Source of the DNA: Candidatus Poribacteria bacterium
GTDB taxonomy: Bacteria > Poribacteria > WGA-4E > WGA-3G
Assembly: GCA_022828145.1 (NCBI GenBank)
Contig: JAJEJA010000088.1
Coordinates: 40,100-104,099 of the forward strand
Reading direction: 5' to 3'
Length of the DNA: 64,000 nucleotides
Shown here: in pieces, positions 44,927 to 60,932 of the stretch
Layout of the letters: the number at the start of each line of letters is the position of its first letter
How positions within the stretch are numbered: position 1 is the first letter of the stretch
The notes under the pieces: generated by a model
Database searches by the model: none
Seen by the model: only the letters and a program-made list of their open reading frames with translations
What the model was told of the DNA's origin: nothing
Position numbers and translations under genes: made by a program

Positions 44927-45035
44927 GCACAGTCCAAGCCTGTCGATTTAGGTATCACGTGCCAAAATTGTGCCTATATTTTGTATTTCACTTTAACCCC
45001 TCCAAATGTGTATTATGTACATAAGGAGGAGCAGT

Positions 45036-46406: not shown

Positions 46407-46445
46407 TTGGTTCACACCCCTACAACAAAAAAGGAGAAGTTTGAA

Positions 46446-48107
46446 ATGAACGAAGCAGAAAAACAGCCGCAACAGATGCCACATCAGGTAGATGAAGGCA
46501 GGTACAAGAAACTATTCGGGTTAGACATTTACTTAACGCCTGTATTCGTAATTTCCAGTATCACCATTGTATTATTCGTAGCTGGTTCACTAATTTTTCA
46601 AGACCAAGCGACAGAACTTTTCAAAAGCACCCGAGTATGGCTTACCACAAATCTTGATTGGCTCTTCATGATCACAGCTAATCTTGTATTTCTCTTTTGT
46701 GTAATTGTCGCCATCTCTCCTCTTGGTAAAATCCGACTTGGAGGTTCAGATGCAAAACCTGAGTACTCCAATTTAACATGGCTTGCGATGCTTTTTGCTG
46801 CAGGCGTGGGTATTGGACTACTCTTCTTTGGCGTGTCGGAACCGATTACCTATTTTCAGGGGGATACTGATGCTGTGAAGTATTCGCCGCTCGGGAGAGA
46901 AACGGTTTATGACGCAAATGCAGATTACAGTGTTACAGCTGTTCCTGACATCGCTGATCCCAAAGTTAAATCGGCGGCTTCTTTGAGTATAGCAACAACA
47001 GTTTTTCACTGGGGGCTACATGGGTGGGCAATCTACGGCGTTGTCGGACTTGCATTGGCGTTTTTCGCATATAATAGAGGATTTCCGTTACTTATCAGAT
47101 CCGCGTTTTATCCCATACTCGGCGACCGGATATGGGGGTGGCCCGGACACATTATTGATACATTCGCCATTTTTGCTGGGATCTTTGGACTCGCAACTTC
47201 CCTTGGCTTAGGAGTAGAACAGGTGACTTCTGGTCTTAACTATCTATTTGGGATACCTGCACACGAGGTGACCATGGTTCTGTTGATTGTTGGGATTACA
47301 GCCATCGCTCTTGTATCAGTGATGACAGGCATTAATGTTGGCATTAAACGACTTAGTCAGTTCAACATAATTCTTGCGTTTATTTTGCTCGTAACTATTT
47401 TCATTCTTGGTCCAACCCGTTATATCTTTCAAAATATTTTTGCAGGATTTGGGACCTATTTCAAGGAAATTGTGCCGCTGAGTAACTGGGTTGGACGTGA
47501 GGACACCGGTTTTCTGCACGATTGGACTACGTTCTATTGGGCATGGTGGATCGCTTGGGCTCCGTTTATTGGAACATTCATCGCAAGGATCTCAAAAGGA
47601 CGCACCGTGCGTCAGTTTGTGTTCTTTGTGCTTATTTTGCCGACTCTATTGTGTCTATTGTGGTTTAGTGCATTTGGGGGTACTGCTATCCACCAGTTTC
47701 TCACTGGAGATTTCACAGGTGTAACCGAAGAGGTAGAAGCATATAATTACCCACTGGCACTCTTTAAAATGTTCACAGAATTACCAGCATCATTGCTGCT
47801 TTCGTGTGCTGCTATGTTGTTAACGATCATCTTTTTTGTTACCTCATCAGATTCAGGATCGCTAATCATTGATATAATAGCCGCAGGCGGTAAGGTAGAC
47901 GCGCCCGTTGCACAACGGGTTTTCTGGTGTACTGCTGAAGGTTTAGTCGCAATTGCATTGCTACTCGGAGGAGGGTTGAAGGCGTTACAAGCTGCATCAC
48001 TTGCAACAGGTTTCCCTTTCGCGATTGTGCTGTTAGGTATGGGTGGATGCGTTCTTGCGGGTATGATAAAAGAGAGACGTGAGATACGATCTGTAGATAG
48101 CAATTAG
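46446..48107 (+). CDS. BCCT-family (betaine/carnitine/choline) transporter
   Basis: Based on ORF 46407-48107, with the start moved to ATG 46446 after 'aaaggaga'. Multiple TM segments and the BCCT signature 'WTTFYWAWWIAWAPFIGTFIARISKGRTVRQF'. Confidence 0.9.
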   Translation: MNEAEKQPQQMPHQVDEGRYKKLFGLDIYLTPVFVISSITIVLFVAGSLIFQDQATELFKSTRVWLTTNLDWLFMITANLVFLFCVIVAISPLGKIRLGGSDAKPEYSNLTWLAMLFAAGVGIGLLFFGVSEPITYFQGDTDAVKYSPLGRETVYDANADYSVTAVPDIADPKVKSAASLSIATTVFHWGLHGWAIYGVVGLALAFFAYNRGFPLLIRSAFYPILGDRIWGWPGHIIDTFAIFAGIFGLATSLGLGVEQVTSGLNYLFGIPAHEVTMVLLIVGITAIALVSVMTGINVGIKRLSQFNIILAFILLVTIFILGPTRYIFQNIFAGFGTYFKEIVPLSNWVGREDTGFLHDWTTFYWAWWIAWAPFIGTFIARISKGRTVRQFVFFVLILPTLLCLLWFSAFGGTAIHQFLTGDFTGVTEEVEAYNYPLALFKMFTELPASLLLSCAAMLLTIIFFVTSSDSGSLIIDIIAAGGKVDAPVAQRVFWCTAEGLVAIALLLGGGLKALQAASLATGFPFAIVLLGMGGCVLAGMIKERREIRSVDSN

Positions 48108-48122
48108 TTTCAAAAATAACGC

Positions 48123-48153
48123 ATGATATTACATGGGATGGACGGCTAATATG
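48123..48153 (+). terminator. Hairpin after the BCCT gene (possible terminator)
   Basis: An 11-bp perfect stem, 'atgggatggac' pairing with 'gtccatcccat'. Only a short T run follows ('ctacttttg'). Confidence 0.4.
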
Positions 48154-48227
48154 TCCATCCCATCTACTTTTGAATTATCCAGGTTTCCGATTATAGTAAA
48201 TTATGTAAATAAGTTTACATATATTCT

Positions 48228-48290
48228 GTAGGAGCGATCTCCGAATCGCGACGCAACCCCTAATAGTCGGGAATCGGAGATCGCTCCTAC
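48228..48290. repeat. BIME-like inverted pair of family-2 REPs
   Basis: 'gtaggagcgatctccgaatcgcgac' + 13 nt + 'gtcgggaatcggagatcgctcctac'. Confidence 0.85.
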
Positions 48291-48537
48291 AACTCAGATG
48301 TAAAGTTAATTGTAGAATCCACTATAATGTGAGTTCCATAAATATTTTTGTGAATTTAACTTGTTTTTTACCGAGAAATATAGTATCATCAATAATTATT
48401 AATAAGCTATTTTTATATTTAAATTCAGTTGGTAAAAAACAATGCCCTATTACTACCTACTAAGTCGCCTCCACGTTTGTTCAATCCTTGGACTTCTGTG
48501 GTTTTACCGATTATCCAGTTTATTAACTATAGGTTTG

Positions 48538-48548
48538 CCCCCCCCCCC
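48538..48548. repeat. Homopolymeric C11 tract in the intergenic region upstream of the dockerin gene cluster
   Basis: 'tttg' + 11 x c + 'gcaaaa', about 210 nt upstream of the 48759 start. Confidence 0.9.
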
Positions 48549-48758
48549 GCAAAATTGTAATAATATATAAGTTAGCGAACAAGCGTATATCATTGGTGTT
48601 CGTCAACCTTTTGTTGTGCCCGTTATGCTCTCTATTCACTTGGATAGTTTGCTACGGGTATTTTATTATTGCATTTATACATCAATCTATTCGTGTGACT
48701 CAAACTTTACCTTTGATGTACACAAAATTCAGAAACAATCCATAAAGGAGATTTTATT

Positions 48759-49832
48759 TTGAAAATAACAAAGAAGTTAGTTTACACAATTCTCACACTG
48801 TCCTTCCTCGTAATACTTCCATCCTTAACTATAGCACAAGACATAGTAGTTCCTTTACCAGAAGACATTAACAACGACGGTATAGTAGACGTCCGTGACC
48901 TTGTACTCGTTGCCAACGCGATAGGACAGACAGTAGATAGTTCAGCTGAACAAAATCCTGATGCAACTGGAGACGGTGTTGTCAATGTACTTGACCTTGT
49001 ACGCGTCGCCAGCCGCATTGGAAAAGTACAGATAGGTCTGAAAAAACTTTATTGGGGTGATATTGGGACAAGCCGTATAGAACGCGCTGATCCTAATGGG
49101 ACAAACAGGGAAGTCCTGGTGAATAATGCACGTCCATGGGATTTAGCTCTGGATATTGAGGAACGCAAGATCTATTGGATAAGTGTAACTGGATATGGAA
49201 TTGAACGAGCGAACTTAGACGGTTCAGATAGAGAAAAACTCGTTCCTGTAGATGGTCAAGGAGTCAGTTTAGACTTGGATACAGGAAAGATGTATTGGAC
49301 AAGTAATGCCGGAACAATTTCGCGTGCTAATCTTGATGGATCTAATGTTGAACTCCTAATTGATGGCTTAGTTTTTCCAGATAGCATCGCACTTGATTTA
49401 GTCAACGGCAAGATCTATTGGACAGAGGCTTTAAGTAGAGTAAGAAGCGGTCCTAATATTGGAGTTGATGGCGCAATTAAACGTGCTAATCTTGATGGTT
49501 CAGACGTGGAAACGCTTGTTACTGATTTGCGAGAACCCCAAGGGATTAACTTAGACATAGAAAACGGTAAGATGTATTGGAGCAATTGGACCCCGATAGA
49601 TAAAATTCAACGTGCAAACCTTGATGGAACAGACGTTGAAGACATTGCACCTGGACGGGGTGGTTTAGAAGGGATCGTGTTGTTCTTTGAAATAGGCAAG
49701 ATGTATTTTACTGATTTTGGCGTAAGAAAAATCTTGCGATCAAACTTTGACGGTTCAGACATTGAAGAAATTATAACAACTGGATTGAGTACGCCAATAT
49801 CAATAGTTTTGGATATTGGACCTGTCAATTAA
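48759..49832 (+). CDS. Secreted dockerin-like + six-blade YWTD (LDL-receptor class B) beta-propeller protein
   Basis: 357-aa ORF with a TTG start 8 nt after 'aaaggag' and signal 'LVYTILTLSFLVILPSLTIA'. Dockerin-like pair 'DINNDGIVDVRDLVLV' and 'ATGDGVVNVLDLVRV'. Six 'K[IM]YW[TS]...I.RANLDGS..E.L' blades. Confidence 0.8.
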   Translation: MKITKKLVYTILTLSFLVILPSLTIAQDIVVPLPEDINNDGIVDVRDLVLVANAIGQTVDSSAEQNPDATGDGVVNVLDLVRVASRIGKVQIGLKKLYWGDIGTSRIERADPNGTNREVLVNNARPWDLALDIEERKIYWISVTGYGIERANLDGSDREKLVPVDGQGVSLDLDTGKMYWTSNAGTISRANLDGSNVELLIDGLVFPDSIALDLVNGKIYWTEALSRVRSGPNIGVDGAIKRANLDGSDVETLVTDLREPQGINLDIENGKMYWSNWTPIDKIQRANLDGTDVEDIAPGRGGLEGIVLFFEIGKMYFTDFGVRKILRSNFDGSDIEEIITTGLSTPISIVLDIGPVN

Positions 49833-49890
49833 ATGAGGAGTCTGCATAAAATATTCAATGTCACAATATGTACTTAAAGATGTACTTAAA

Positions 49891-49916
49891 GGTAGTAGGC
49901 ACACTCCGTGTGCCGT
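49891..49916 (+). repeat. REP-like hairpin, family 4
   Basis: 'ggtagtaggcacactccgtgtgccgt'. It is preceded by a 12-bp tandem duplication 'atgtacttaaag' x2. Confidence 0.8.
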
Positions 49917-49981
49917 TCACAAGTAGGTATGCTTAAATGAATAAAAAAACTAACAGACTTTCTGGAAAAAGAGGAGTATTG

Positions 49982-52318
49982 ATGATGAAAACAACTTTAG
50001 TTTGGACGATGTTATTGTTCACACTTTCACTATCTATTGGACTGCCACACACTGCGGCAGAAGACTCTACAAAATTGAGTTTACCCGAGGGTGCCATAGC
50101 GCGCCTCGGTAAAAGCATTATATCTGAGATAGTGTATTCGCCTGATGGCACGTTGCTTGCTGTGGCAAGTAGTGTCGGTATATGGCTCTATGATGCCGAA
50201 ACGCTACAAGAACACGCACTGCTCATTGGACATTCAGGCGGCGTCCGTATTTGTGTTTCGTTCAGTCCTGACGGAAAAACAATCGCAAGTGGAAGTCAGG
50301 GTGAAGTGCGTTTGTGGGATGTCGCAACCGCTACACAGAAAGGGACGCTCGAGCATACAAGTTATGTCGATAGTGTCTCATTCAGTCCGGATGGCAAAAC
50401 ACTCGCAAGTGGGAGTCATGATCACACGGTGAGTTTATGGGATGTCGCAACCGCTACCCAAAAAGGGACCCTCACTGGACATACAGCCGCTGTCAGCAGT
50501 GTTTCGTTCAGTCCGGATGGCAAAACAATCGCAAGCGGGAGTTATGACAACACTGTGCGTTTGTGGGATACAGCAACTGCTACAGAGAAACACACACTCA
50601 CTGGACATACAGCCTCTGTCCGTAGTGTTTCATTCAGTCCGGATGGTAAAACACTCGCAAGTGGGAGTCAGGACAGGTCGGTGCGTTTATGGGATGCAGC
50701 AACTGCTACAGAGAAACACACACTCACTGTACATTTTGGATCTGTTGAGAGTGTCCCGTTCAGTCCAGATGGAGAAACAATCGCAAGTACAAGTTGGGAT
50801 GGGGGCGGGATTGTGCAATTCTGGGATGTGGCAACTGGGACACAGAAAGGGACACTCACGGCAGGTTTCGTCCTTAGTGTCTCGTTCAGTCCAGATGGAA
50901 GAACTATCGCAGGTGCAAGTGTGGATGAAGTACGTTTGTGGGATGTGACAACTGCTACACAAACTGGGACAATTATGGGACATACAAACTGGCTCAATAG
51001 TTCATCGTTCAGTCCGGATGGTAAGACAATCGTAATCGCAGGTTGGGACGGGGTACTTTTGTGGGATGTAGCAACTGCAACACACAAGCGGACCCTCACA
51101 GGAAATACAAGCTGGGTCTTAAGTGCCTCATTCAGTCCAGATGGAAAAACAATCGCAAGTGGAAGTGCAGATAAGACGGTGAGATTATGGGATGTAGCAA
51201 CTGGGACACTCAAACACACCCTCACAGGTCATACAAACTGGGTCCATAGTGTCTCGTTCAGTCCAGATGGAAAAACAATCGCCAGCACGGAGAATTTGGA
51301 CGGAGCCGTGCGATTATGGGATGTTGAAACTGGTACACAGAAAGGGATACTTATTGGACATACTGGCTTTGTCTGGAGTGCATCGTTCAGTCCGGATGGC
51401 AAAACAATCGCTACTGGAGGTTATCGGGACAACTCGGTGCGATTATGGGATGTGGCAACTGGGACACAAAAAAGGACACTTGAGCATACAAGCTCGGTCA
51501 CTGCTGTATCTTTCAGTCCAGATGGAAGGACAATCGTAAGTGGAAGTTGGGAGGAGGTGCGTTTGTGGGATGTGGCAACTGGGACACAAAAAAGGACACT
51601 CCCAGGACATACGCACCATGTACATAGTGTCTCATTCAGTCCGGATGGAAAAACAATCGCAAGTGGGGGTTGGGATGGACCAGTGCGTTTATGGGATGTG
51701 GCAACTGGGTCCCTAAAACACACACTCACTGGACATACAAGCACGGTCAATAGTGTTTCGTTCAGTCCGGATGGCAGGACTCTGGCAAGTGTTGGCGATG
51801 GTACAGTCCTGCTCTGGGACCTCACACTTTACCTTGATATAACGACAGAACCCCCGGACACGGTAGATATACTGGGACCAACAATAGCGATTCTTACCCC
51901 ATTGGCAGACCAAATACTTAACCACGGGATGCCAGTTATCACAGGTGAGTTTTCAGGGACTGCAACACCTATATCACTTAGCCTCATACTCAACGGTGCA
52001 GAAGTCAATGCAAAAGTAAGCGATAACGGATTCACTTACACATTTGCTGAAGTGTTAGACGATGGCGAATACACACTCGTTGCTACAGCAATAGATGCGA
52101 ATGGGAAGACCGCTGAAGCAACTGTTACTTTCTCAATAAAACCCGCGTATCCTGCGTGGGATGTGAATGAGGATGGTCACGTCAACATATTAGATTTAGT
52201 GCTTGTGGGACAAAATATTGGTGGATCGATTGCAACAGTCCCTCGCGCAGATGTCAACGGTGATGGGAGTATCAATATCTTAGACCTGGTGCTTGTCGCC
52301 GGACACTTTGGGGAATGA
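49982..52318 (+). CDS. Secreted 14-blade WD40 protein with Ig-like segment and C-terminal dockerin-like module
   Basis: Based on ORF 49937-52318, with the start moved to ATG 49982 after 'agaggag'. Signal 'LVWTMLLFTLSLSIGLPHTAA'. Fourteen '[VA]SFSPDG' units. C-terminal 'DVNEDGHVNILDLVLV...DVNGDGSINILDLVLVAGHFGE' is followed by the stop codon. Confidence 0.9.
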   Translation: MMKTTLVWTMLLFTLSLSIGLPHTAAEDSTKLSLPEGAIARLGKSIISEIVYSPDGTLLAVASSVGIWLYDAETLQEHALLIGHSGGVRICVSFSPDGKTIASGSQGEVRLWDVATATQKGTLEHTSYVDSVSFSPDGKTLASGSHDHTVSLWDVATATQKGTLTGHTAAVSSVSFSPDGKTIASGSYDNTVRLWDTATATEKHTLTGHTASVRSVSFSPDGKTLASGSQDRSVRLWDAATATEKHTLTVHFGSVESVPFSPDGETIASTSWDGGGIVQFWDVATGTQKGTLTAGFVLSVSFSPDGRTIAGASVDEVRLWDVTTATQTGTIMGHTNWLNSSSFSPDGKTIVIAGWDGVLLWDVATATHKRTLTGNTSWVLSASFSPDGKTIASGSADKTVRLWDVATGTLKHTLTGHTNWVHSVSFSPDGKTIASTENLDGAVRLWDVETGTQKGILIGHTGFVWSASFSPDGKTIATGGYRDNSVRLWDVATGTQKRTLEHTSSVTAVSFSPDGRTIVSGSWEEVRLWDVATGTQKRTLPGHTHHVHSVSFSPDGKTIASGGWDGPVRLWDVATGSLKHTLTGHTSTVNSVSFSPDGRTLASVGDGTVLLWDLTLYLDITTEPPDTVDILGPTIAILTPLADQILNHGMPVITGEFSGTATPISLSLILNGAEVNAKVSDNGFTYTFAEVLDDGEYTLVATAIDANGKTAEATVTFSIKPAYPAWDVNEDGHVNILDLVLVGQNIGGSIATVPRADVNGDGSINILDLVLVAGHFGE

Positions 52319-52391
52319 ACACCTATAAGATTTTAAGACTCGCAGCTGAATAAAAAAACTACCAGATTTTCTAACAAAAAAAGGAGTATTA

Positions 52392-54878
52392 ATGATGAAA
52401 ACGACTTTAGTTTGGACGATGATATTGTTCACACTTTCACTTTCTATTGGACTATCACACACCGCGGCAGTAGATACATCAGAATGGGAATTGCCTGAGG
52501 GTGCCAAATCCCGTCTCGGTAAAGGTGGGATAACTAATATCACATATTCACCTGATGGTACGTTGCTTGCAGTGGCAGGTAGTATCGGTATATGGCTCTA
52601 CGATACTGCAACGCTCCAAGAACGGGCACTGCTCACTGGACAGACACAATGGGTCAGTAGTGTGTCGTTCAGTCCGGATGGAAGGACAATCGCAAGTGCA
52701 AGTTCGGACCCCACGGGTTCGGAATATACGGTGCGTCTGTGGGATGTGGCGACTGCTACACAGAAAGGAACACTCGAGCACACAGGCGCGGCCTATAGTG
52801 TTTCATTCAGTCCGGATGGAAAAACAGTCGCAACTGGAAGTAGGGGCGAGGTGATTTTGTGGGATGTGGCGACTGCTACACAGAAAGGAACACTTACGGG
52901 ACATTCATCCGCTATCCTTAGTGTAGTGTTCAGTCCGGATGGAAAAACAATCGCAAGTGTGGGTTATGACAGCACGGTGCTTTTATGGGATGTTGCGACT
53001 GCCACACAGAAAGGAACACTCACGGGACACACAGATCTCGTCAAGAGTGTTTCATTCAGTCCGGATGGAAATACAATCGCAAGCGGAAGTCAGGACAACA
53101 CAGTGCGTTTGTGGGATGTGGCGACTGCTACACAGAAAGGGACACTCACGGGTCATACGTTCTGGGTCTATAGTGTGTCATTCAGTCCGGATGGAAATAC
53201 AATCGCAACTGGAAGTTGGGGTGAACTGTTTTTGTGGGATGTTGCGACTGCCACACAGAAAGGAACTCTCACGGGACATACAGACCTTGTCAAAAGTGTT
53301 TCGTTCAGTCCGGATGGAAAAACACTTGCAAGCGGAAGTCAAGACAGCACAGTGCGTTTGTGGGATGTGGAAACTACTACACAGAAAGGGACAATTACGG
53401 GTTATACAGGCTCTGGCAGGAGTGTTTCGTTCAGTCCGGATGGAAATACAATCACAAGTGGAAGTGGGGACAAGGTGCTATTGTGGGATGTCCCAACTGC
53501 TACACTTACACTCGAACATACGGGCGCGGGCACGAGTGTGTCGTTTAGTCCGGATGGAATGAAAATCGCAAGCGGAAGTTGGAACAGCACAGTGCTTTTG
53601 TGGGATGTGACAACTGGAACGCTCATACACACACTCACTGGTCATACACAATGGGTAAGTAGTGTCGCATTCAGTCCGGATGGAATGACAATCGCAAGCA
53701 CAAGTTATTATGAAAACACGGTGCGTTTATGGGATGTTGAAACTGGGACACAGAAAGCAACACTCACTGGACATACAGGTGGGGTAAGTAGTGTCGCATT
53801 CAGTCCAGATGGAATGACAATCGCAAGTGGGGGGAATGACAAGACAGCGCGTTTATGGGATGTTGAAACTGGGACACAGAAAGCAACACTCACGGGACAT
53901 AATGGCGATATAACAAGTGTGTCGTTCAGTCCAGATGGTACCATTCTCGCAAGCGGAAGTTGGGAAAAGGTACTTTTATGGGATGTGGCAACTGCTACAC
54001 TTACACTTGAACATACAGGCACGGGCACGAGTGTATCGTTCAGTCCCGATGGAAAGACAATAGCAAGAGGAAGTGGGGATGGAGTGCTTTTGTGGGACGT
54101 GGCAACTGGAACAATCAAACACACACTCACCGGACATACAGACTATGTCCAAAGTGTAGCGTTCAGTCCGGATGGTACTACCCTCGCAAGTGGAAGTGAT
54201 GATGGTACGGTGCTGTTGTGGGACTTCACGCCTTATCTTACGCCAAAACCCGCGTATCCTGCGTGGGATGTGAATGAGGATGGTAGCGTCAACATACTGG
54301 ATTTAGTTCTTGTGGGACAAAACATCGGCGGATCGATAGCAACAGTCCCCCGCGCAGATGTCAATGGTGATGGGGGTATCAATATCTTAGACTTGGTGCT
54401 TGTCGCTGGACATTTTGGGGAGACAACAAATGTTGCTGCACCTGAAAGTGTTGTGAAGTTAGATGGTGTTGAGCCTGCACTCGTCAAAAAATGGTTAGAA
54501 CTTGCGCAGCTTGAAAATGACGGTTCTTTGGCGTTCCGACAAGGTATAGCAAACTTGGAACGTCTTTTGGCATCCTTTATTCCGCAAGAGACTGCACTTT
54601 TAGCCAATTACCCGAACCCGTTTAACCCTGAGACGTGGATGCCGTATCAGTTAGCAAAGTCTGCAGAAGTGAGTATCTCTATCTATGCTGCGGATGGGAA
54701 ACTGATTCGGACATTGGCGTTAGGGTATCAAGCTGCAGGTGTTTATCACAACAGAAACAGAGCGGTATATTGGGATGGAAAAAATGCAGCAGATGAATCT
54801 GTTGCAAGTGGTGTATATTTCTACACGCTTATCGCGGGCGATTTCACCGCAACGCGCAAAATGTTAATATTGAAATAA
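52392..54878 (+). CDS. Secreted 14-blade WD40 protein with dockerin-like module and T9SS-type C-terminal sorting domain
   Basis: 828-aa ORF with SD 'aaaggag' and signal 'LVWTMILFTLSLSIGLSHTAA'. Fourteen 'SFSPDG' units and dockerin-like 'DVNEDGSVNILDLVLV...DVNGDGGINILDLVLV'. CTD: 'NYPNPFNPETWMPYQL...IYAADGKLIRTL...GVYFYTL...RKMLILK'. Confidence 0.9.
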   Translation: MMKTTLVWTMILFTLSLSIGLSHTAAVDTSEWELPEGAKSRLGKGGITNITYSPDGTLLAVAGSIGIWLYDTATLQERALLTGQTQWVSSVSFSPDGRTIASASSDPTGSEYTVRLWDVATATQKGTLEHTGAAYSVSFSPDGKTVATGSRGEVILWDVATATQKGTLTGHSSAILSVVFSPDGKTIASVGYDSTVLLWDVATATQKGTLTGHTDLVKSVSFSPDGNTIASGSQDNTVRLWDVATATQKGTLTGHTFWVYSVSFSPDGNTIATGSWGELFLWDVATATQKGTLTGHTDLVKSVSFSPDGKTLASGSQDSTVRLWDVETTTQKGTITGYTGSGRSVSFSPDGNTITSGSGDKVLLWDVPTATLTLEHTGAGTSVSFSPDGMKIASGSWNSTVLLWDVTTGTLIHTLTGHTQWVSSVAFSPDGMTIASTSYYENTVRLWDVETGTQKATLTGHTGGVSSVAFSPDGMTIASGGNDKTARLWDVETGTQKATLTGHNGDITSVSFSPDGTILASGSWEKVLLWDVATATLTLEHTGTGTSVSFSPDGKTIARGSGDGVLLWDVATGTIKHTLTGHTDYVQSVAFSPDGTTLASGSDDGTVLLWDFTPYLTPKPAYPAWDVNEDGSVNILDLVLVGQNIGGSIATVPRADVNGDGGINILDLVLVAGHFGETTNVAAPESVVKLDGVEPALVKKWLELAQLENDGSLAFRQGIANLERLLASFIPQETALLANYPNPFNPETWMPYQLAKSAEVSISIYAADGKLIRTLALGYQAAGVYHNRNRAVYWDGKNAADESVASGVYFYTLIAGDFTATRKMLILK

Positions 54879-55152
54879 TAGTCCGTTCGGGTGAGGAAAC
54901 CCCGTCCGACTGATCTACTAACTCAAGTTGCTACATAAGTAGCACAAACGTCATGAAGACAAGAAAACAATCCAGTCCTTTCTGGACCATAGTGTGTGCA
55001 CAAACTGGAAAGCGGACGCTACAGATGTGCGCAACTAATTATTAATTCCACTATAAAAGGAAATGCGTCCATCCTTTATAAGTGAAATCAACTACAGACT
55101 ATTAGAATGATGTTACAGCAACATCAAAACCAAAAAAGGAAAGGAATTTACA

Positions 55153-57903
55153 ATGAAAAGTCTATTGATATCTCAAAAGTCAATCGTGGCACTTCTGGCT
55201 ATGATAACCCTTATATTCACCTTCCATAATATAAGTGAAGCACAAACCTCAAACTACACCCACATCTATGTAGATGCAGTCAACGGAGCAAATGGTCCCA
55301 ATAGGGGAACAGAGGCAAAGCCGTATAAGTCTATTACTTTCGCACTGTTGATCAGTGAAAGAACGAACCTGCCAGATCCGTGGCATGTGCATATTCTTCC
55401 CGGCACCTACGACGGAGATCCGGAGAAGCCGGCAAATGAACGCGAAGTTTTCCCGCTTAAACTCCGCAGCAACATGATTTTTGAAGGGACAACTACCGCA
55501 GCAGAATGTATCATTGATGCACAGCACCTCGGCGCAACAAAGTTCGAAATTCTGCGCGGAATTGACGTTGAAGGTGTCGTGATCCGTAACTTAACTATCC
55601 AGAATATGAACCGGACCGATAATGCAGGCGGAATTGTTCTCTGGGATGAGACCGGCACGCGTGAGACACCCAGCAGTATTGAGACGTGCGTTATCCATAA
55701 TAATGGTGTTACTGGCATTGCCACAAATATGCCGCTGCACCTTACATTGAATACCATCAGTAACCATAGAAATATCGGGGTGTGGACGAGTGATAGCATT
55801 TCTGCCAGCCACAATACCTTCACTGCTAACGGCGGAAGCTTGGGTGGCAATGTATATGGTGGAGGTCTTGGTCTCTATTTTGATGGTGACTCATCAGGCG
55901 ATCTCACTGAGAATACCTTTCAGAATAACAGAGGTACGACTATTTTTGTTAAGGGCACACTAAAGGGAAACGTTTCCAACAATACCTTTACGAACAATCA
56001 CGGTATTCATTTTGCTGAGTTTGGTGGTGGTGGGATCTTTGCTGACACTGTCATCGGCAACCTGACTTATAATGTCTTTACTAAGAATTCATCAAAGCCC
56101 AGAGGTGAGAATAACTACGGAGATACTGGTGGTGGTGCATTCCGTATCACAAATTTCACAGGTGATATTACCCACAATACATTCGCTGAGAATTCATCAA
56201 CTACTTCTGACTATAGTACTGGTGGTGGTGCATTTTATATTCAGAATTTCACGGGTGATATCTCCCAAAATACATTCACTCAGAATGCACATGTTAATAG
56301 TAGGCAGAGGAGTGGTGGTGGAGCATTCTATATTGAAAATTTCACGGGTGATATTTCGCACAATACGTTCACTCAGAATTCATCGACTTGTACTAGGAAT
56401 GAAAGTCAGTTTGGTGGTGGTGCATTCCATATTAGAAATTTTACGGGTGATGTTATCCACAACACATTTTCTGCGAATAAAGTAACGTTTGATGAAGATA
56501 GGACTATTTATAACCGTGTGCATGGTGGTGCATTCTATGTTAATCGCTTCACCGGAAATGTAACCAACAATACATTTACTCAGAATTCAACACAAGGTAA
56601 TGGCAGGGGTACTGGCGGAGCATTTCTGATTACAGCTTTAGCTGGAAATATTACCCACAATATCTTTGATGGTAATTCGGGGTATTGGGCTGGGGCATTT
56701 GACTTATCATCTTCTTCAAATACAGTAGAAGTCAGTAATAACATTTTCTTCAACAACACATCAACGGATACTGGAGATTCAATTGTCACACGGCATGCTA
56801 CGCACATTTTGAATAACCTATTCATGATTTCTGATGAACTCTCTGGTGGTATTTCAGAGGGTGCTACAGTATGGGTAAATTCACCCGAAACACGTTTCCA
56901 CAACAATATCTTTTCCGGTTTGAAGACTGCTATCTTCAAAGAGGGAACACTTGATCTCCCTATTACGCATAATCTATTTCACAATATCGAGAAAAGATTT
57001 GTGAATCAAGGTGGGAACGATCTCGGCAACGATCTGCTGTTCTGGGAACTCTTAGCAGAAAATGCTATGGATAACCTTGAGGGGTCGCCGCTGCTTGTTG
57101 ATCCGGTAGGAGATCGGAACTTCCATCTGCGTGCAACAAGTCCCGCAATTGATGCAGGGACAAATGCTTTTGCACCTGCTGACGATCTTGATGGCAATGC
57201 CAGACCTGTCGGTGAAAAGGTAGATATAGGTCCCTATGAGTACAACGCAGACACAGCAGATATATCTACCCCCGTATTTCTGGACTGGGATGTGAATGAG
57301 GATGGTCATGTCAACATATTGGATATTGTTGTCGTGTCACAAAACTTGGGTCAATCTGAACCAGATAATCCACGCACAGATGTCAACGGTGATGGAGCGG
57401 TCAACATTTTAGACATTGTTCTTATTTCCCAACATTTGGGAGAATCTTCCGGTGCACCTGCTGCGCACACAAGCGTGAGTATCTATCAGAATGTTGACTC
57501 CGCTACAATTCAGACATGGATAAATCTTGCACAGGTTGCGGACGACGGTTCAGCTGTTTTCCGAGAGGGTATTGCTAACCTTAAGCGACTATTGACTGCA
57601 AACGTTCCGCAGAAGACTGCTCTGCTTGCAAACTATCCGAACCCGTTTAACCCTGAGACATGGATACCGTATCAGTTGGCAAAGCCTGCAGAAGTGAGCG
57701 TCTCTATCTATGCTGCAGATGGGAAATTGATTCGCACGTTGGCGTTAGGACACCAAGCTGCAGGTGTTTATCACAACAGAAGTCGTGCGGCTTATTGGGA
57801 CGGTAAAAACGCAACAGGTGAATCTGTCGCAAGTGGTGTATATTTCTACACGCTTATCGCTAGCGAGTTTACCGCAACGCGGAAAATGTTAATATTGAAA
57901 TAA
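55153..57903 (+). CDS. Secreted right-handed parallel beta-helix repeat protein with dockerin-like module and T9SS-type C-terminal sorting domain
   Basis: 916-aa ORF with signal 'IVALLAMITLIFTFHNISEA'. DUF1565-like 'IYVDAVNGANGPNRGTEAKPYKSITFAL'. Many 'GGGAF.I.NFTGDI.HNTFT.NS' coils. Dockerin-like 'DVNEDGHVNILDIVVV...DVNGDGAVNILDIVLI'. The CTD is nearly identical to that of the 52392 gene. Confidence 0.85.
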   Translation: MKSLLISQKSIVALLAMITLIFTFHNISEAQTSNYTHIYVDAVNGANGPNRGTEAKPYKSITFALLISERTNLPDPWHVHILPGTYDGDPEKPANEREVFPLKLRSNMIFEGTTTAAECIIDAQHLGATKFEILRGIDVEGVVIRNLTIQNMNRTDNAGGIVLWDETGTRETPSSIETCVIHNNGVTGIATNMPLHLTLNTISNHRNIGVWTSDSISASHNTFTANGGSLGGNVYGGGLGLYFDGDSSGDLTENTFQNNRGTTIFVKGTLKGNVSNNTFTNNHGIHFAEFGGGGIFADTVIGNLTYNVFTKNSSKPRGENNYGDTGGGAFRITNFTGDITHNTFAENSSTTSDYSTGGGAFYIQNFTGDISQNTFTQNAHVNSRQRSGGGAFYIENFTGDISHNTFTQNSSTCTRNESQFGGGAFHIRNFTGDVIHNTFSANKVTFDEDRTIYNRVHGGAFYVNRFTGNVTNNTFTQNSTQGNGRGTGGAFLITALAGNITHNIFDGNSGYWAGAFDLSSSSNTVEVSNNIFFNNTSTDTGDSIVTRHATHILNNLFMISDELSGGISEGATVWVNSPETRFHNNIFSGLKTAIFKEGTLDLPITHNLFHNIEKRFVNQGGNDLGNDLLFWELLAENAMDNLEGSPLLVDPVGDRNFHLRATSPAIDAGTNAFAPADDLDGNARPVGEKVDIGPYEYNADTADISTPVFLDWDVNEDGHVNILDIVVVSQNLGQSEPDNPRTDVNGDGAVNILDIVLISQHLGESSGAPAAHTSVSIYQNVDSATIQTWINLAQVADDGSAVFREGIANLKRLLTANVPQKTALLANYPNPFNPETWIPYQLAKPAEVSVSIYAADGKLIRTLALGHQAAGVYHNRSRAAYWDGKNATGESVASGVYFYTLIASEFTATRKMLILK

Positions 57904-57965
57904 TTGTCAGTCGGGGTGGGGAAACCCACCCCAAAGATGTAAAGTTAAGGATTTTTCGATGCCAA

Positions 57966-58184
57966 AAACCCTCTTTAGTCCCGACAAATGCCAAACGCGC
58001 ATTTGGCGTTGATTTGGTAGGGACGATATGTTTATAGTTAAACGTTATACAAACCCTCTTTAGTCCCGTAGGGACGCAATGTTTATAGTTAAACGTTATA
58101 CAAACCCTCTTTAGTCCCGTAGGGACGAAATGTGTCGTAGTTCAACCGTGATCTATAAACATTGCGTCCCTACGGGACTAAAGA
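57966..58184. repeat. Array of the GTCCC-GTA-GGGAC hairpin unit: three direct 51-bp units plus one inverted copy
   Basis: 'aaaccctctttagtcccgtagggacg.aatgtttatagttaaacgttatac' starts at 57966 (interrupted by the cassette), 58051 and 58102. The inverted 'ctataaacattgcgtccctacgggactaaagag' is at 58152-58184. Confidence 0.85.
57983..58016 (-). mobile_element. Second copy (reverse orientation) of the 34-nt hairpin cassette, inserted in the family-3 hairpin
   Basis: Uninterrupted units read 'ctttagtccc|gtagggacg'. Here 'gacaaatgccaaacgcgcatttggcgttgatttg' lies between them. It is the reverse complement of 34289-34322 with one mismatch. Confidence 0.5.
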
Positions 58185-58311
58185 GCATCCCTCACTCTCA
58201 GATAATCCCTAAATTGACACCTATAGGTATGTCAGAATACGCGTTTGGTATTCTGAATTGGTTAGGAAACCGCACCTACCGGGTTTGAGGTTGAAATCCG
58301 AATTACCTAAA

Positions 58312-58494
58312 GTATTATTTTAACTTCATTAGGGACGATATGTTTGATGAATGCTGTTGAAGAAGCACAATCAAGGATGAATGTGCTACAAAAAGAGACA
58401 TTATCAATTAGAAATGGTATTATTTTAACTTCATTAGGGACGATATGTTTGATGAATGCTGTTGAAGAAGCACAATCAAGGATGAATGTGCTAC
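58312..58494 (+). repeat. Perfect 78-bp direct repeat (two copies, 105-bp period) ending in the dyad motif
   Basis: 58312-58389 and 58417-58494 are identical by eye ('gtattattttaacttcattagggacgatatgtttgatgaatgctgttgaagaagcacaatcaaggatgaatgtgctac'). Confidence 0.85.
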
Positions 58495-58575
58495 GGATTG
58501 ATGAAAGTAAATGATGAGGATATGATTTTATCTCTCGGGACGATTGTTTTGTCTGATTCTACAATTCCTTAGATG

Positions 58576-58604
58576 TTGCTTTTTCTTATGGTTTCTGATA
58601 TAAT
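58576..58604 (+). promoter_or_regulatory. sigma70-like promoter of the tsaD-tsaC operon
   Basis: TTGCTT (58576-58581), 17-bp spacer, TATAAT (58599-58604). Confidence 0.5.
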
Positions 58605-58642
58605 ATCTGTGAAATTTAGAACCGAGAAAAGCAACTCGCTTT

Positions 58643-59698
58643 GTGGTTCAAATAGGCGTGCTGAAAGATAACATTGTGAAGATACTCGGAATAGATACCT
58701 CTTGTGATGAAACAGCTGCTGCTATAGTAGTTGATGGTCGTGATGTGCAATCAAACATCGTTGCATCACAGATAAAAGCACATGAGGCATACGGGGGTAT
58801 TGTGCCAGAATTGGCATCCCGCAAGCACATAGAGGCAATCAATTATATCGTCAACAGAGCACTCGTTGAAGCAGATACGACTTTTGATGATATAGATGCG
58901 GTTGCTGTGACAAACCGACCAGGTCTGATTGGTGCTTTACTGATTGGTGTGGCTGCAGCTAAAAGTCTTGCATATTGTCACAATCTTCCACTGCTCGGCA
59001 TCAATCACATTGAAGGTCACATCTACGCCAATTACATGGTGCACGATAACTTAACATTTCCGCATATCTGTTTGACTGTATCTGGTGGACACACCTTATT
59101 GGTAGAAGTTCATGAAGGATGGAATTATAAGGTTCTCGGTACAACGCAAGATGATGCTGCGGGTGAAGTCTATGATAAAGTTGCTAAGTATCTCGGTCTC
59201 GGGTTTCCGGGAGGAAAGATCATAGATGAACTTGCACAAAAAGGTGATCCGACAGTCATTGACTTTCCCCGTCCAATGCTCCGCAGCGGCGACTATCAAT
59301 TCAGTTTTAGTGGTGTAAAAACCTCTGTCCGATACTTCGTGGAAAAGGCAGAACGCGCGGGCACAATAGAAAGCGGTCAAGTTACCATTGAAGATATTGC
59401 TGCAAGTTTCCAAGCAGCAGTTGTTGACGTGCTTGTAGCAAAGACTGTTCAAGCCGCAAAGACTACTGGTTGTCATACGATAACACTAACTGGCGGGGTT
59501 GCTGCCAACAGTAAACTAAGGTCATCTCTAAAGGAACATGCACAAGAAATTGGTGCGGAAGTATATTATCCTCCATTTAGTTTATGTACGGATAACGGAG
59601 CTATGATTGCAGGGATCGCCTATGAAAAATATCTGCAAGGACAGCGTGATGAGCTTTCTCTCAATGCTGCAGCAAACGGTTCAATAGTTGATGTCTAA
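58643..59698 (+). CDS. tsaD: tRNA N6-adenosine threonylcarbamoyltransferase
   Basis: ORF starting at GTG 58643; a GTG at 58676 ('VKILGIDTSCDETAAAIV') is an equally plausible start. 'HIEGHI', 'SGGHT', 'GGVAAN' and 'LCTDNGAMIA' are present. Confidence 0.92.
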   Translation: MVQIGVLKDNIVKILGIDTSCDETAAAIVVDGRDVQSNIVASQIKAHEAYGGIVPELASRKHIEAINYIVNRALVEADTTFDDIDAVAVTNRPGLIGALLIGVAAAKSLAYCHNLPLLGINHIEGHIYANYMVHDNLTFPHICLTVSGGHTLLVEVHEGWNYKVLGTTQDDAAGEVYDKVAKYLGLGFPGGKIIDELAQKGDPTVIDFPRPMLRSGDYQFSFSGVKTSVRYFVEKAERAGTIESGQVTIEDIAASFQAAVVDVLVAKTVQAAKTTGCHTITLTGGVAANSKLRSSLKEHAQEIGAEVYYPPFSLCTDNGAMIAGIAYEKYLQGQRDELSLNAAANGSIVDV

Positions 59699-59712
59699 CT
59701 GGAGAAATAGTC

Positions 59713-60354
59713 GTGGAATGTGCCCAAAGTTCTGACCTACGTCGTATTGAATCAGCAGTGAACTGTATAAAGTCTGGGGGAATTATTGCTGTTCCAACTG
59801 ATACAGTGTATGGTATAGGTGCTGATCCATTTAATGTAGAGGCAGTACAGAAACTATATACGGTAAAGGGACGACCAGAAGAGAAACCGATCCCCTTAGT
59901 CTTAGGCTCAACTGAGGATGTAGAAAGGGTAGCACAGAACTTGCCAGGATTCTTTTATCACCTGATAGATAAGTTTTGGCCAGGTGGATTAACAATCATT
60001 GTAGAGGCAAAAGGGTTGCTGCCTCAGTTGACAGCAGGCGGCAAAACTGTGGGATTACGCATACCAGATCAACCCATATTATTACGCATACTTCAAGAAT
60101 TCGGAGGCCCCCTTGCCATAACGAGTGCGAATCTTTCAGGAACACCAGCAGCCACCTCACCATCGGAATTTGGAGAAGAACTCAGTTCTCGGTTAGATTA
60201 CATCGTTGATGATGGAAAGACATCAGGCTCTATACCATCAACAGTTTACGATATTTCAATATCACCCCCCGTTGTTCATCGGCAAGGCGTAATTTCTGAT
60301 GAAACACTTGAGAAGGAGTTGATTTGTTACAACAGATATTTAAAGAACTCCTAA
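59713..60354 (+). CDS. tsaC: L-threonylcarbamoyladenylate synthase (YrdC/TsaC type, single domain)
   Basis: 213-aa ORF with a GTG start. 'IIAVPTDTVYGIGADP', 'KLYTVKGRPEEKPIPLVL', 'WPGGLTII' and 'ITSANLSG' are present. Confidence 0.85.
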   Translation: MECAQSSDLRRIESAVNCIKSGGIIAVPTDTVYGIGADPFNVEAVQKLYTVKGRPEEKPIPLVLGSTEDVERVAQNLPGFFYHLIDKFWPGGLTIIVEAKGLLPQLTAGGKTVGLRIPDQPILLRILQEFGGPLAITSANLSGTPAATSPSEFGEELSSRLDYIVDDGKTSGSIPSTVYDISISPPVVHRQGVISDETLEKELICYNRYLKNS

Positions 60355-60908
60355 CGTTCATAGCATCTTCAACAGGACAGTGGGTGATACTCATATTAGG
60401 ATGCGTGATTGCATTGGCAATCGTATATCACAGATGGAGGCAAATTCCCGGTTTGACGGTCAACCTAATTCAGGAGGATACATGGTTTATCAATCGTGAT
60501 GACAATAATCGTTTATCCATTGTGGTTTCTCTCCATCTGATCAACAAATCAGCTGCACCGATACAGTTTTGTAGGTGTAAATTGAGTGGATATTCCCCCA
60601 AACCCCCTCTAGATCAGATGTTTCTTGAGGGATACGACAAGACAATTGAACTTACCTATCCCGAATACGATTCATTCTCAGAAATCGTGGGTAAATCGGA
60701 GAATCTTAATTCCGTGTATGTGCTCAATCCTTATACAGAGCAACAGATGTGGGTGTATTATGAGTCTGGGATTGTTACACTTAGGAATATGCTTCGCGCA
60801 CCGATAGTTTTGAAGGATCTTAATCGTAAACGAAAATCTATACAAGCAACAGTACCACGCAATATGGAACAGATACAACTCTACCGGGAAGCGGCGATGC
60901 GTTGGTAA
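60324..60908 (+). CDS. Hypothetical membrane-anchored protein
   Basis: 194-aa ORF with a TTG start 6 nt after 'aaggag', overlapping the tsaC 3' end by 31 nt. One TM segment 'WVILILGCVIALAIVY'. No recognisable domain. Confidence 0.5.
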   Translation: MLQQIFKELLTFIASSTGQWVILILGCVIALAIVYHRWRQIPGLTVNLIQEDTWFINRDDNNRLSIVVSLHLINKSAAPIQFCRCKLSGYSPKPPLDQMFLEGYDKTIELTYPEYDSFSEIVGKSENLNSVYVLNPYTEQQMWVYYESGIVTLRNMLRAPIVLKDLNRKRKSIQATVPRNMEQIQLYREAAMRW

Positions 60909-60932
60909 TCAGATAAAATTTAGAGGATACAC

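Follow-up and report, generated by a model that had tools for sequence, protein, structure and literature searches.

We suggest, with slightly more confidence than doubt, that four consecutive genes (p1-p4) of a poribacterium supply cargo to a display system that is lineage-wide and probably cellulosome-style. Because relatives encode matching cohesins on surface-anchored scaffolds, the four genes would be one strain's cargo set rather than a unique invention. The sequence that we read, called the window here, comprised 64,000 nt of Candidatus Poribacteria bacterium (GCA_022828145.1, JAJEJA010000088.1, positions 40,100-104,099). It belongs to a Candidatus Poribacteria genome; in a genome scan, matches to the whole dockerin-linker-CTD cassette carried by two of the genes were nearly all in Poribacteria MAGs.

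The initial annotation had described four consecutive plus-strand genes at 48759-57903, each with a signal peptide and a dockerin. The ORFs were confirmed, with Dockerin_1 scores of 40.5-50.6 bits, and their features are as follows.

48759-49832, + strand: p1, 357 aa; signal peptide, N-terminal dockerin and six-blade YWTD/LDL-receptor class B propeller
about 48861-49019 (aa 35-87), + strand: p1 dockerin, Dockerin_1 40.5 bits
aa 95-355 of p1, + strand: propeller, Ldl_recept_b 1.2e-30, six YW[TG]D-type motifs
49937-52318, + strand: p2, 793-aa ORF; signal peptide, 14 WD40 repeats, Big_13 and C-terminal dockerin
about 51905-52138, + strand: p2 Big_13 Ig-like domain preceding the dockerin, 1.2e-8
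52160-52315, + strand: p2 dockerin, Dockerin_1 46.1 bits
52392-54878, + strand: p3, 828 aa; signal peptide, 14 WD40 repeats, dockerin, helical-hairpin linker and T9SS type A-like CTD
54267-54443, + strand: p3 dockerin, Dockerin_1 43.6 bits
about 54468-54596, + strand: p3 helical-hairpin linker
54597-54875, + strand: p3 T9SS type A-like CTD, TIGR04183 28.9 bits
55153-57903, + strand: p4, 916 aa; signal peptide, DUF1565 and right-handed beta-helix, dockerin, linker and CTD
aa 656-698 of p4, + strand: choice-of-anchor Q domain, profile match
57289-57465, + strand: p4 dockerin, Dockerin_1 50.6 bits
about 57487-57621, + strand: p4 helical-hairpin linker
57622-57900, + strand: p4 T9SS type A-like CTD, TIGR04183 26.3 bits

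All four ORFs are intact (357-916 aa), and each has a Sec-type leader, called by eye, and a ribosome-binding site. The start of p2 is most likely at 49982 (MMKTT..., 778 aa), in agreement with the public gene call of 778 aa. The profiles proposed earlier for checking these proteins (Dockerin_1, Ldl_recept_b, WD40, Beta_helix and TIGR04183/FlgD_ig) all gave significant matches where expected. The passengers are indeed a YWTD propeller of six blades, a pair of WD40 proteins with 14 repeats each and a beta-helix. The p1 propeller matched those of LRP2/4/6 in the PDB (best 5.6e-83). The WD40 matches of p2 and p3 were 1e-128 to 1e-131 (1.9e-131 for p2), and each protein has 13 FSPDG motifs and one YSPDG motif, making 14 repeats. 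These two are tandem paralogs with 67% identity, and full-length homologs of p3 (45-48% identity) were found at six other Poribacteria loci (L016, L020 with two copies, L021, L022, L037 and L041). The Beta_helix match of p4 was 6.9e-14, together with the DUF1565 and choice-of-anchor Q matches.

The passengers had been read as binding-type repeat folds and not as enzymes, and this was borne out, since profile searches detected no CAZyme or peptidase family in p1-p4. A cellulosome-like degradative complex, in which the p4 beta-helix would degrade polysaccharides as a lyase or hydrolase and the cluster would be part of a system that recruits enzymes, as in clostridia and Cloacimonadota, would draw on the pectate lyases among Beta_helix and DUF1565 folds, on the GHL15 glycosidase-like domain of some poribacterial dockerin proteins, and on the enzyme-loaded scaffoldins with a CTD proposed by Williams et al. 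(2021, PMC8542988). However, the search of p4 against PDB sequences returned no enzyme, and most of the passengers in the lineage sample are LRR, WD40, YWTD, CARDB and Ig modules. Since the four proteins gave no enzyme family either, we consider such a complex very improbable.

By sequence and predicted fold, p1-p4 carry genuine dockerins, and p3 and p4 a genuine T9SS type A-like CTD. All four dockerins exceeded the gathering threshold of Dockerin_1 (Pfam, 22.9 bits). They are type-I-like, each with two near-identical calcium-loop/helix segments, and the duplicated DxNxDG segments were found exactly as first quoted; the dockerin profile matched 2Y3N_B in the PDB (1.6e-11). The p1 dockerin lies at the N-terminus and has just 38-44% identity to those of p2-p4, and its partner may be different from that of the others, or it may have none. 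In p2, the stop codon directly follows the dockerin, so that linker and CTD are absent. The CTD is also absent from p1, and both proteins hence have no identified outer-membrane route, which is a point against the display model.

At the ends of p3 and p4, the dockerin is followed by a short hinge, then by a helical hairpin that is conserved, and last by the CTD, a beta-sandwich of the T9SS type A/FlgD-Ig kind. Judged from sequence, the dockerin, hairpin and CTD are one conserved cassette (about 60% identity) that is typical of Poribacteria and new. No further dockerin or CTD turned up when the window was scanned for motifs in six frames. The T9SS-type sorting domain that had been assigned to p3 and p4 held up: both passed TIGR04183 (NCBIfam cutoff 23 bits) and FlgD_ig (35.3 and 35.9 bits, Pfam cutoff 27). 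Their Por_Secre_tail scores were 21.7 and 21.8 bits, under the Pfam cutoff of 27. The CTD profile matched FlgD 7EH9 in the PDB. An AF2 model of the p4 cassette (aa 701-916) had a pLDDT of 84, and Foldseek matched its CTD to FlgD, PorU 6ZA2, PorZ 5M11 and the mirolase CTD 8QB1, as well as to the translocon-bound NucA CTD 8GLK_D with a TM of 0.69.

The CTD might nevertheless be no secretion signal. Poribacteria would then be without a T9SS, and the FlgD-Ig-like domain would serve envelope attachment, oligomerisation or an undescribed pathway, with proteins that may stay periplasmic or at the inner face of the outer membrane. The higher score of FlgD_ig than of Por_Secre_tail fits this idea, as does the lack of any T9SS family in the precomputed Pfam annotations of the scaffold (82 kb). 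Furthermore, Kamke et al. (2014, PLoS One, PMC3909097) reported that poribacterial single-cell genomes yielded no Por/T9SS structural genes, which also counts against the display model. However, those genomes are fragmentary assemblies, and the domain passes TIGR04183 and always stands at the very C-terminal end of proteins that have a leader. In the genome scan, the CTD alone showed 40-48% identity to CTDs of T9SS-bearing FCB-group phyla, and its predicted fold matches T9SS CTDs that were defined by experiment, among them those of substrates bound in the SprA translocon. Taken with this evidence, a role other than secretion appears quite improbable.

The annotation had also noted that the window has no cohesin, and our local cohesin HMM was likewise negative. 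Neither cohesin nor T9SS genes were found in the 82 kb of scaffold_195 that were read; the lack of a cohesin over this distance is a further point against the display model. In related Poribacteria, a true cohesin (40-50 bits, Pfam cutoff 24.1) lies immediately upstream of the dockerin-linker-CTD cassette, in proteins with LRR, WD40, beta-helix or similar passengers, and one intact protein of 849 aa consists of passenger, cohesin, dockerin, linker and CTD. There are also scaffoldins with two or three cohesins and the cassette, directly followed by dockerin-bearing cargo genes; P0242, from a genome placed taxonomically by cassette HMM scores alone, has three cohesins and the cassette, and adjoins two LRR-dockerin-CTD genes. 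The cohesin profile matched 3L8Q (5.8e-11) and 5G5D (1e-7) in the PDB, and an AF2 model, with pLDDT 80-95 in the cohesin region, resembled type II and non-cellulosomal cohesins (TM 0.6-0.75). Several cohesin-bearing ORFs in relatives are broken by in-frame stops or frameshifts, and part of this family may be decaying. An architecture census found at least eight dockerin-only proteins without a CTD, like p1 and p2, at other loci, and many tandem arrays of dockerin cargo genes in Poribacteria. The multi-cohesin scaffoldins of relatives, and their cohesins fused to the same cassette, show that the lineage does have the partner that seemed to be missing, and they make assembly through cohesins much more plausible than before. 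We assume that the genome of p1-p4 encodes a cohesin as well.

It is possible, though in our opinion unlikely, that the four proteins are independent adhesins. Their dockerin-like segments would then be calcium-binding, EF-hand-like stabilisers or spacers without a cohesin partner in the organism, p3 and p4 would be anchored by their CTDs alone, and p1 and p2 would be soluble proteins, secreted or periplasmic. The scaffold without a cohesin agrees with this, weak EF-hand matches overlie the dockerins, and partnerless non-cellulosomal dockerin-like modules are widespread according to Peer et al. (2009), as cited in PMC8542988. Against it stand the cohesins directly beside the same dockerin in relatives and the multi-cohesin scaffoldins beside dockerin cargo genes. 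Moreover, the dockerins are kept at about 60% identity, and their symmetric duplicated segments are typical of cohesin-binding dockerins.

The genes lie in a strain-specific insertion in a conserved backbone, which was delimited as follows.

48182-58016, + strand: strain-specific island with exactly four genes, p1-p4 (blastn against L094)
48228-48290, no strand: REP-like palindrome (GTAGGAGCGATCTCCGA ... TCGGAGATCGCTCCTAC), just within the left edge of the island
58017-58494, no strand: 51-nt and 105-nt tandem repeats and inverted repeats, backbone, abutting the right edge of the island

The island (9.8 kb) is situated between a BCCT transporter gene, which ends at 48107, and tsaD, which starts at 58643. 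In L094, whose TsaD is 96% identical, the left flank aligned by blastn up to 48181 and the right flank from 58017, with 344 nt where the island would stand. BCCT and tsaD are also neighbours in L091, L092 and L093, and the island is missing from relatives with TsaD 86-96% identical. Its codon GC3 resembles that of the backbone. The palindrome motif recurs at 61758 in the window and at the Poribacteria loci L015, L044, L092 and L093, and the repeat block at the right edge is in part common to L094. Of the extracellular, possibly cohesin-assembled array proposed at the outset, the assembly by cohesins gained support from the cohesins and scaffoldins of relatives, while the four genes proved neither special nor conserved as a functional unit; they make up an insertion specific to the strain and one of many arrays.

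An island that close relatives lack could also be a recent insertion of redundant or truncated copies with no current function. Pseudogenised relatives exist, and p2 without linker and CTD could be such a truncated copy that has lost its CTD. However, this seems extremely improbable, because the four ORFs are intact with leaders and ribosome-binding sites, the dockerin-only architecture recurs at the other loci of the census, and p2 and p3, although only 67% identical by now, still have 14 intact repeats each.

The passengers had in part been described already. Kamke et al. (2014, PMC3909097) reported WD40 and LDL-receptor-B proteins of Poribacteria with TIGR04183 tails as surface-located ELPs. 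These resemble the p1-p4 set in phylum, in WD40 and tandem LDL-receptor class B passengers, in signal peptides or TM helices and in the TIGR04183 end, and they pose the same puzzle, in that Por/T9SS structural genes were not found. Dockerin and cohesin are unmentioned in the main text of that paper, and we found no open paper naming both Poribacteria and dockerin. Relative to that paper, the fusion of dockerin, hairpin and CTD in one cassette is new, and so are the cohesin partners, the scaffoldins with several cohesins and the strain-variable island. A cohesin scaffoldin bearing a CTD is not new in itself, since one with a conserved T9SS-type CTD was predicted in the Cloacimonadota 'Ca. Stygibacter' (Williams et al. 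2021, PMC8542988). That organism is likewise Gram-negative, with a CTD that would attach the scaffoldin to the surface and with dockerin proteins that have signal peptides. However, its cargo is enzymatic (GH18, GH57, peptidases), in contrast to the non-enzymatic binding repeats of p1-p4, and its scaffoldin is one protein of 3,755 aa with tandem cohesins and CBMs (PMC8542988). In Poribacteria, a phylum without a demonstrated T9SS, cohesin and dockerin commonly share one polypeptide, beside the lineage-specific helical hairpin and CTD.

The modules are homologous to those of clostridial cellulosomes of type I and II (for example A. cellulolyticus ScaA/ScaB and P. cellulosolvens), with the dockerin resembling 2Y3N_B and the cohesin 3L8Q, 4U3S and 5G5D. 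Duplicated symmetric dockerin segments, cohesin-dockerin adaptor proteins and scaffoldin genes near cargo genes are common to both. Clostridia anchor by SLH domains or sortase to a Gram-positive wall, whereas poribacterial anchoring would be to the outer membrane by the T9SS-type CTD; the poribacterial system has no X-module or CBM, and it carries cargo that does not act on carbohydrates. Non-cellulosomal modules (Peer et al. 2009; C. perfringens toxin complexes; A. fulgidus cohesin 2XDH) are likewise used outside plant cell-wall degradation, and the poribacterial cohesin fold resembles 2JH2, 2VO8 and 2XDH (TM 0.72-0.75). However, those modules are isolated or link enzymes, whereas the poribacterial ones are lineage-expanded and coupled to a secretion/anchor CTD and eukaryote-like repeats. 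Bacteroidota T9SS cargo (gingipains, PorZ, PorU, NucA, RemZ, mirolase) shares with p3 and p4 a Sec leader and a beta-sandwich CTD of 80-90 aa that passes TIGR04183, and the predicted fold is that of the solved CTDs. In contrast, the machinery for p3 and p4 has not been identified and their phylum lies outside the FCB group; the conserved hairpin and dockerin that precede their CTD are absent from classical T9SS cargo.

In the display model that we favour, p1-p4 would be exported by Sec. T9SS CTDs direct cargo across and onto the outer membrane, and the CTD would then take p3 and p4 across and onto it; this step rests on analogy because Kamke et al. saw no T9SS structural genes. Carrying a dockerin and no CTD, p1 and p2 would be held at the surface non-covalently, plugged into cohesins of CTD-anchored proteins whose genes lie elsewhere in the genome. 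Cohesin and dockerin occur together in many of the anchored proteins, which could therefore chain into a surface mesh. Such a mesh would show exchangeable eukaryote-like propellers (YWTD, WD40) and a beta-helix, probably to adhere to, or interact with, the surfaces of hosts or particles, and gain and loss of islands among strains would vary the repertoire displayed.

Four co-oriented genes, each encoding a leader and a dockerin, make up the cluster at 48759-57903, and here the initial annotation, made from the sequence, agrees with the ORF listing, with Dockerin_1 scores above threshold and with our inspection of the leaders. Its passenger assignments, a six-blade YWTD propeller, two 14-repeat WD40 proteins and a beta-helix, were recovered by the Ldl_recept_b, WD40 and Beta_helix HMMs and by motif counts. 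Its view that these passengers are not carbohydrate-active enzymes was upheld, because family HMMs detected no enzyme family in any of p1-p4 and a PDB sequence search with p4 gave no enzyme match. The genes, taken from the ORF listing, are as follows.

48759-49832, + strand: p1, N-terminal dockerin, then a six-blade YWTD propeller
49937-52318, + strand: p2, 14 WD40 repeats, Big_13, dockerin
52392-54878, + strand: p3, 14 WD40 repeats, dockerin, linker, C-terminal domain (CTD)
55153-57903, + strand: p4, DUF1565, Beta_helix, choice-of-anchor Q, dockerin, linker, CTD

The hydrophobic leaders of p1-p4, picked out by eye, read MKITKKLVYTILTLSFLVILPSLTIAQD, MMKTTLVWTM(L/I)LFTLSLSIGL..HTAA and MKSLLISQKSIVALLAMITLIFTFHNISEAQ; p2 probably starts at 49982, which matches the public 778-aa gene call. 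Promoter and terminator scans for operon structure gave nothing above the shuffled expectation. The dockerins score 40.5 (p1), 46.1 (p2), 43.6 (p3) and 50.6 bits (p4) against the dockerin type I family (PF00404), whose gathering threshold is 22.9. In all four proteins the dockerin is a tandem pair of segments, each about 22 residues long, in which a 12-residue DxNxDGxxxxxD calcium loop is followed by a helix, and the AF2 model of the p4 C-terminus places dockerin helices at 22-29 and 52-60 (model numbering), one behind each loop. The dockerin profile also matches the solved structures 2Y3N_B (1.6e-11), 6KG9 and 1DAQ. A six-frame motif scan of the window revealed no further dockerin or CTD.

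In p1, Ldl_recept_b reaches 106 bits against a threshold of 21 (1.2e-30), and six YWTD-type motifs at residues 96-319 amount to one propeller of six class B repeats. Its PDB matches are LRP2, LRP4, LRP6, LDLR and nidogen. However, a Pfam family search found no EGF or LDL-A family in p1, and a dockerin precedes the propeller instead; p1 has the fold and repeat family of the YWTD/LDL-receptor class B (PF00058) and is not an LDLR-type receptor. The tandem paralogs p2 and p3 (67% identity over about 630 aa) score 423 and 413 bits for WD40 (PF00400). HMMER called 12 stretches, and the motif count of 13 FSPDG plus one YSPDG in each protein gives 14 repeats, a number that would suffice for two propellers of seven blades each. 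In p2 there is an additional Big_13 Ig domain, and the protein stops directly after its dockerin (GGG GAA TGA); the 73 nt 3' of this stop hold only a ribosome-binding site for p3. At 50145-54130 (both strands), p2 and p3 share their sequence with several ORFs of 95-207 aa that run in other frames or antisense; these are almost certainly artefacts of repetitive WD40 coding sequence and not genes. The families found in p4 are DUF1565, Beta_helix and choice-of-anchor Q. Adhesin repeats of the Pmp type were considered for p4 and rejected, as no Chlam_PMP match appeared even at E <= 1.

The initial annotation had also placed a T9SS-type domain of about 90 aa on the last two proteins, and both pass TIGR04183 in NCBIfam (p3 28.9 and p4 26.3 bits against a cutoff of 23) and FlgD_ig (35.3 and 35.9 against 27). 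For Por_Secre_tail of Pfam (PF18962) they reach 21.7 and 21.8 bits, below the cutoff of 27. In p3 and p4, both with a Sec-type leader as judged by inspection, this CTD makes up the C-terminal 93 residues. Together with the dockerin and a helical linker it forms a C-terminal cassette, and in an alignment of 21 cassettes the identity per column is 68%, with an invariant NYPNPFNPETW.PY motif and a tail WDG.N..GE.VASG.YFYTL...F.ATRKML..K. The AF2 cassette model (mean pLDDT 84; about 79-96 over the CTD) consists of a dockerin with two helices, a hinge modelled at low confidence (74-78), a helical hairpin at 83-96 and 101-117, which is the conserved "linker" of the sequence alignment, and a beta-sandwich. 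With Foldseek the sandwich retrieved FlgD Ig domains, PorU (6ZA2), PorZ (5M11) and mirolase (8QB1), as well as the CTDs of NucA (8GLK_D, TM 0.69) and RemZ (8GL8_D), both bound to the SprA translocon. The model predicts for this CTD an Ig-like beta-sandwich like that of solved T9SS CTDs.

The named proteins that match the C-terminal cassette all belong to Candidatus Poribacteria. Whole-cassette matches at 40-65% identity came almost only from Poribacteria MAGs and chromosomes (one genome per GTDB species), the exceptions being one Gemmatimonadota MAG (34% identity) and two MAGs labelled "uncultured bacterium". Matches to the CTD only (40-48% identity) were distributed among Ignavibacteria, Cloacimonadota, Zixibacteria, Calditrichia, Marinimicrobia, Latescibacterota and Bacteroidota, phyla of the FCB group, which are T9SS users.

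As the initial annotation had noted, the window is without a cohesin: the local cohesin HMM detected none there, and none turned up in the 82 kb covered of KELL22-1 scaffold_195 (ENA ERZ23491425), the 123-kb metagenome scaffold that contains the window, by local HMM and precomputed Pfam annotations. About one third of the best cassette matches in other genomes also bear a cohesin (PF00963), in a list that seems biased toward short ORFs because its best 120 entries are all proteins of at most 378 aa. The cohesins of these relatives score 40.6-50.3 bits against the Pfam threshold of 24.1, and their profile matches PDB 3L8Q and 5G5D. In an AF2 model of the cohesin-bearing version the pLDDT is 80-95 over the cohesin, and Foldseek gave TM values of 0.6-0.75 to type II (4U3S_A, 3GHP) and non-cellulosomal (2JH2, 2XDH) cohesins. 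All retrieved loci were scanned with local HMMs that we made for the cohesin, the dockerin, the linker and the CTD. Among the long genes of the Poribacteria loci, about 11 are cohesin-dockerin-linker-CTD, about 22 are dockerin-(linker)-CTD, about 30 have the CTD only and at least eight have a C-terminal dockerin without a CTD; such cassette, dockerin and CTD genes often form tandem arrays of two to five on one strand.

A search of 1.84 billion representatives with a profile of the cohesin alone gave 12,508 matching proteins at E <= 1e-3, of which 240 reached E <= 1e-30. In the best 150 of the 12,508, 29 have the order cohesin-dockerin-linker-CTD and many have 2 to 11 cohesins. Protein P0241 has a leader and three cohesins, and P0244, P0245 and P0246 each have two cohesins and the cassette. 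P0242, whose taxonomy is inferred from cassette HMM scores, has three cohesins and the cassette behind its leader and is directly followed by two LRR-dockerin-CTD genes (locus L095, 1397-9929; GCA_964652195.1, CAZZBB010000041.1). For binding experiments, this compact scaffoldin-plus-cargo cluster would offer the best material to begin with. The cohesins and multi-cohesin proteins of related genomes argue that partners for dockerins of the p1-p4 type would exist in the lineage, in predicted scaffoldin-like form.

Many ORFs of about 350 aa with a cohesin-dockerin-CTD arrangement might be taken for small stand-alone proteins. These ORFs lack a leader, and many begin inside a conserved ...W.GFFGF..TEY.. 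motif. We rejected the stand-alone reading because three loci show C-terminal pieces of long genes and because an intact 849-aa version exists in locus L011, where a beta-helix/DUF4955 passenger is joined to the cohesin, dockerin, linker and CTD. At 9941-10001 of locus L005, a TGA in frame takes the place of a Trp codon of the intact L011 homolog; at 2784-2802 of L010, from an Illumina TARA assembly, a TAA in frame stands at the position of a Gln in L011; and at 5980-6001 of L011 itself there is a frameshift behind a 969-aa LRR ORF. In these three independent assemblies the cut always lies at most about 30 codons upstream of the cohesin. The cut cohesin tails could be the outcome of pseudogenisation, assembly error or something regulated.

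The four genes sit in an otherwise conserved neighborhood. The backbone of Meth_synt_2, DUF4432, DUF3352-like, porin-like, BCCT, TsaD, Sua5 and a 194-aa gene is kept in the related loci L091 (TsaD 91% identical) and L092 and L093 (86%). The pair of a 466-aa porin-like protein without a Pfam match (45006-46406) and the BCCT transporter (46407-48107) is syntenic in all four relatives. In L091, L092, L093 and L094 (TsaD 96% identical), the BCCT gene adjoins tsaD, with a gap of 235 nt in L091. The blastn alignment of L094 with the window runs up to 48181 and resumes from 58017, such that 48182-58016 (9.8 kb) holds exactly the four genes, where L094 has 344 nt instead. Identity to L094 is 70-85% in the left flank (44000-48181; porin-like gene 70.6%, BCCT 79%) against 93-97% in the right flank (58572-62000), and this asymmetry suggests a recombination breakpoint at the island. 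No recognisable transposase, integrase, mobility gene or tRNA was found at the island borders, and Rfam returned nothing in the whole window. A foreign origin judged by composition was rejected, as GC3 is 0.32-0.41 in the island genes and 0.33-0.42 in the backbone; a value within the backbone range fits an origin inside the lineage. The higher overall GC of p2 and p3 is due to their amino-acid content.

We considered whether the 14-nt direct repeat AGATGTAAAGTTAA (48296 and 57935) is a target-site duplication and rejected this, because the left junction with L094 at 48181 puts the left copy inside the island. The backbone homology of L091 extends beyond this left copy. Two further repeat features lie at the borders, neither assigned to a strand.

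48228-48290, unstranded: REP-like palindrome, GTAGGAGCGATCTCCGA...TCGGAGATCGCTCCTAC, inside the left island border
58017-58494, unstranded: dense repeat block separating the island from tsaD, made of direct repeats of 51 nt (2-3 copies) and 105 nt (2 copies), plus inverted copies

The palindrome is intergenic and occurs in several Poribacteria genomes, being found also at 61758 of the window and in loci L015 (11134), L044 (5056), L092 (9677) and L093 (9411, 9544 and 9677). In L093 it lies within tandem repeats of about 133 nt, in the same BCCT-tsaD spacer that holds the island in the window. The repeat block is partly kept (77-82%) in the island-less L094.

Similar cargo is present elsewhere in the phylum. 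Six further Poribacteria loci have full-length homologs of p3 (45-48% identity), in two cases as neighbouring pairs, and YWTD-cassette proteins recur in other loci; the passengers sampled elsewhere include LRR, WD40, CARDB, PSCyt1 and occasionally a GHL15 domain. The 79 loci scanned do not share the BCCT or TsaD flanks of the island. Elsewhere in the window, 6448-9330 and 10930-12726 encode further repeat proteins that are probably secreted; according to precomputed Pfam annotations of locus L006, one of them (about 944-960 aa) combines a pair of trypsin-like domains with TPR repeats, and two are Laminin_G_3 products of about 260-274 aa.

Poribacteria, which are uncultured and abundant, live in association with sponges and in the sea, and a role in host interaction is ascribed to their eukaryote-like proteins. 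Kamke 2014 (PMC3909097) described in them abundant WD40 proteins, tandem LDL-receptor class B repeats that are likely surface-located, and TIGR04183 tails, especially on WD40 proteins, and reported no Por secretion structural genes in the poribacterial SAGs. The precomputed Pfam annotations of scaffold_195 (82 kb read) likewise include no T9SS machinery (SprA/Sov, PorV, PorU, PorK/L/M/N etc.). In the open literature, no paper joins Poribacteria with dockerin or cohesin, and Kamke 2014 is the sole relevant one found on the T9SS side. In the prediction of Williams 2021 (PMC8542988) for Cloacimonadota, dockerin-bearing enzymes are recruited by a scaffoldin with several cohesins and a CTD anchor. 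The cargo of a cellulosome consists of degradative enzymes, whereas none was detected among p1-p4; by cargo, then, the system is not a cellulosome, although its assembly may work in a cellulosome-like manner. It would share with known systems a cellulosome-style assembly and a T9SS-style anchor, but the non-enzymatic eukaryote-like cargo, the lineage-specific fused cassette and the phylum without a known T9SS are its own.

We can outline how such proteins might be displayed. After Sec export of p3 and p4, the CTD would carry both across and onto the outer membrane, while p1 and p2 would be held there by docking into cohesins of CTD-anchored proteins. Proteins with both a cohesin and a dockerin could link up into chains and so into a mesh presenting binding propellers. 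We raise, as a speculative idea that we think is probably wrong in its full form, a non-enzymatic "adhesosome" in Poribacteria: an outer-membrane-anchored, self-chaining cohesin-dockerin mesh bearing exchangeable eukaryote-like propellers and LRRs, exported and anchored through a T9SS-type CTD without a canonical T9SS, its repertoire diversified from strain to strain by islands such as the present one. In such a phylum, this would imply an unrecognised divergent T9SS or a new CTD-handling pathway.

The findings sharpen a puzzle, in that a very large and highly conserved family of T9SS-type CTDs belongs to a phylum with no T9SS found so far, a question that is directly answerable with the complete Poribacteria chromosomes now public. 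If eukaryote-like proteins are indeed plugged into CTD-anchored cohesin scaffolds, this would explain the recurring dockerin-only proteins and would provide a concrete display mechanism that is testable by recombinant cohesin-dockerin arrays. It would also suggest that strains vary their surface repertoire through the swapping of cargo islands.
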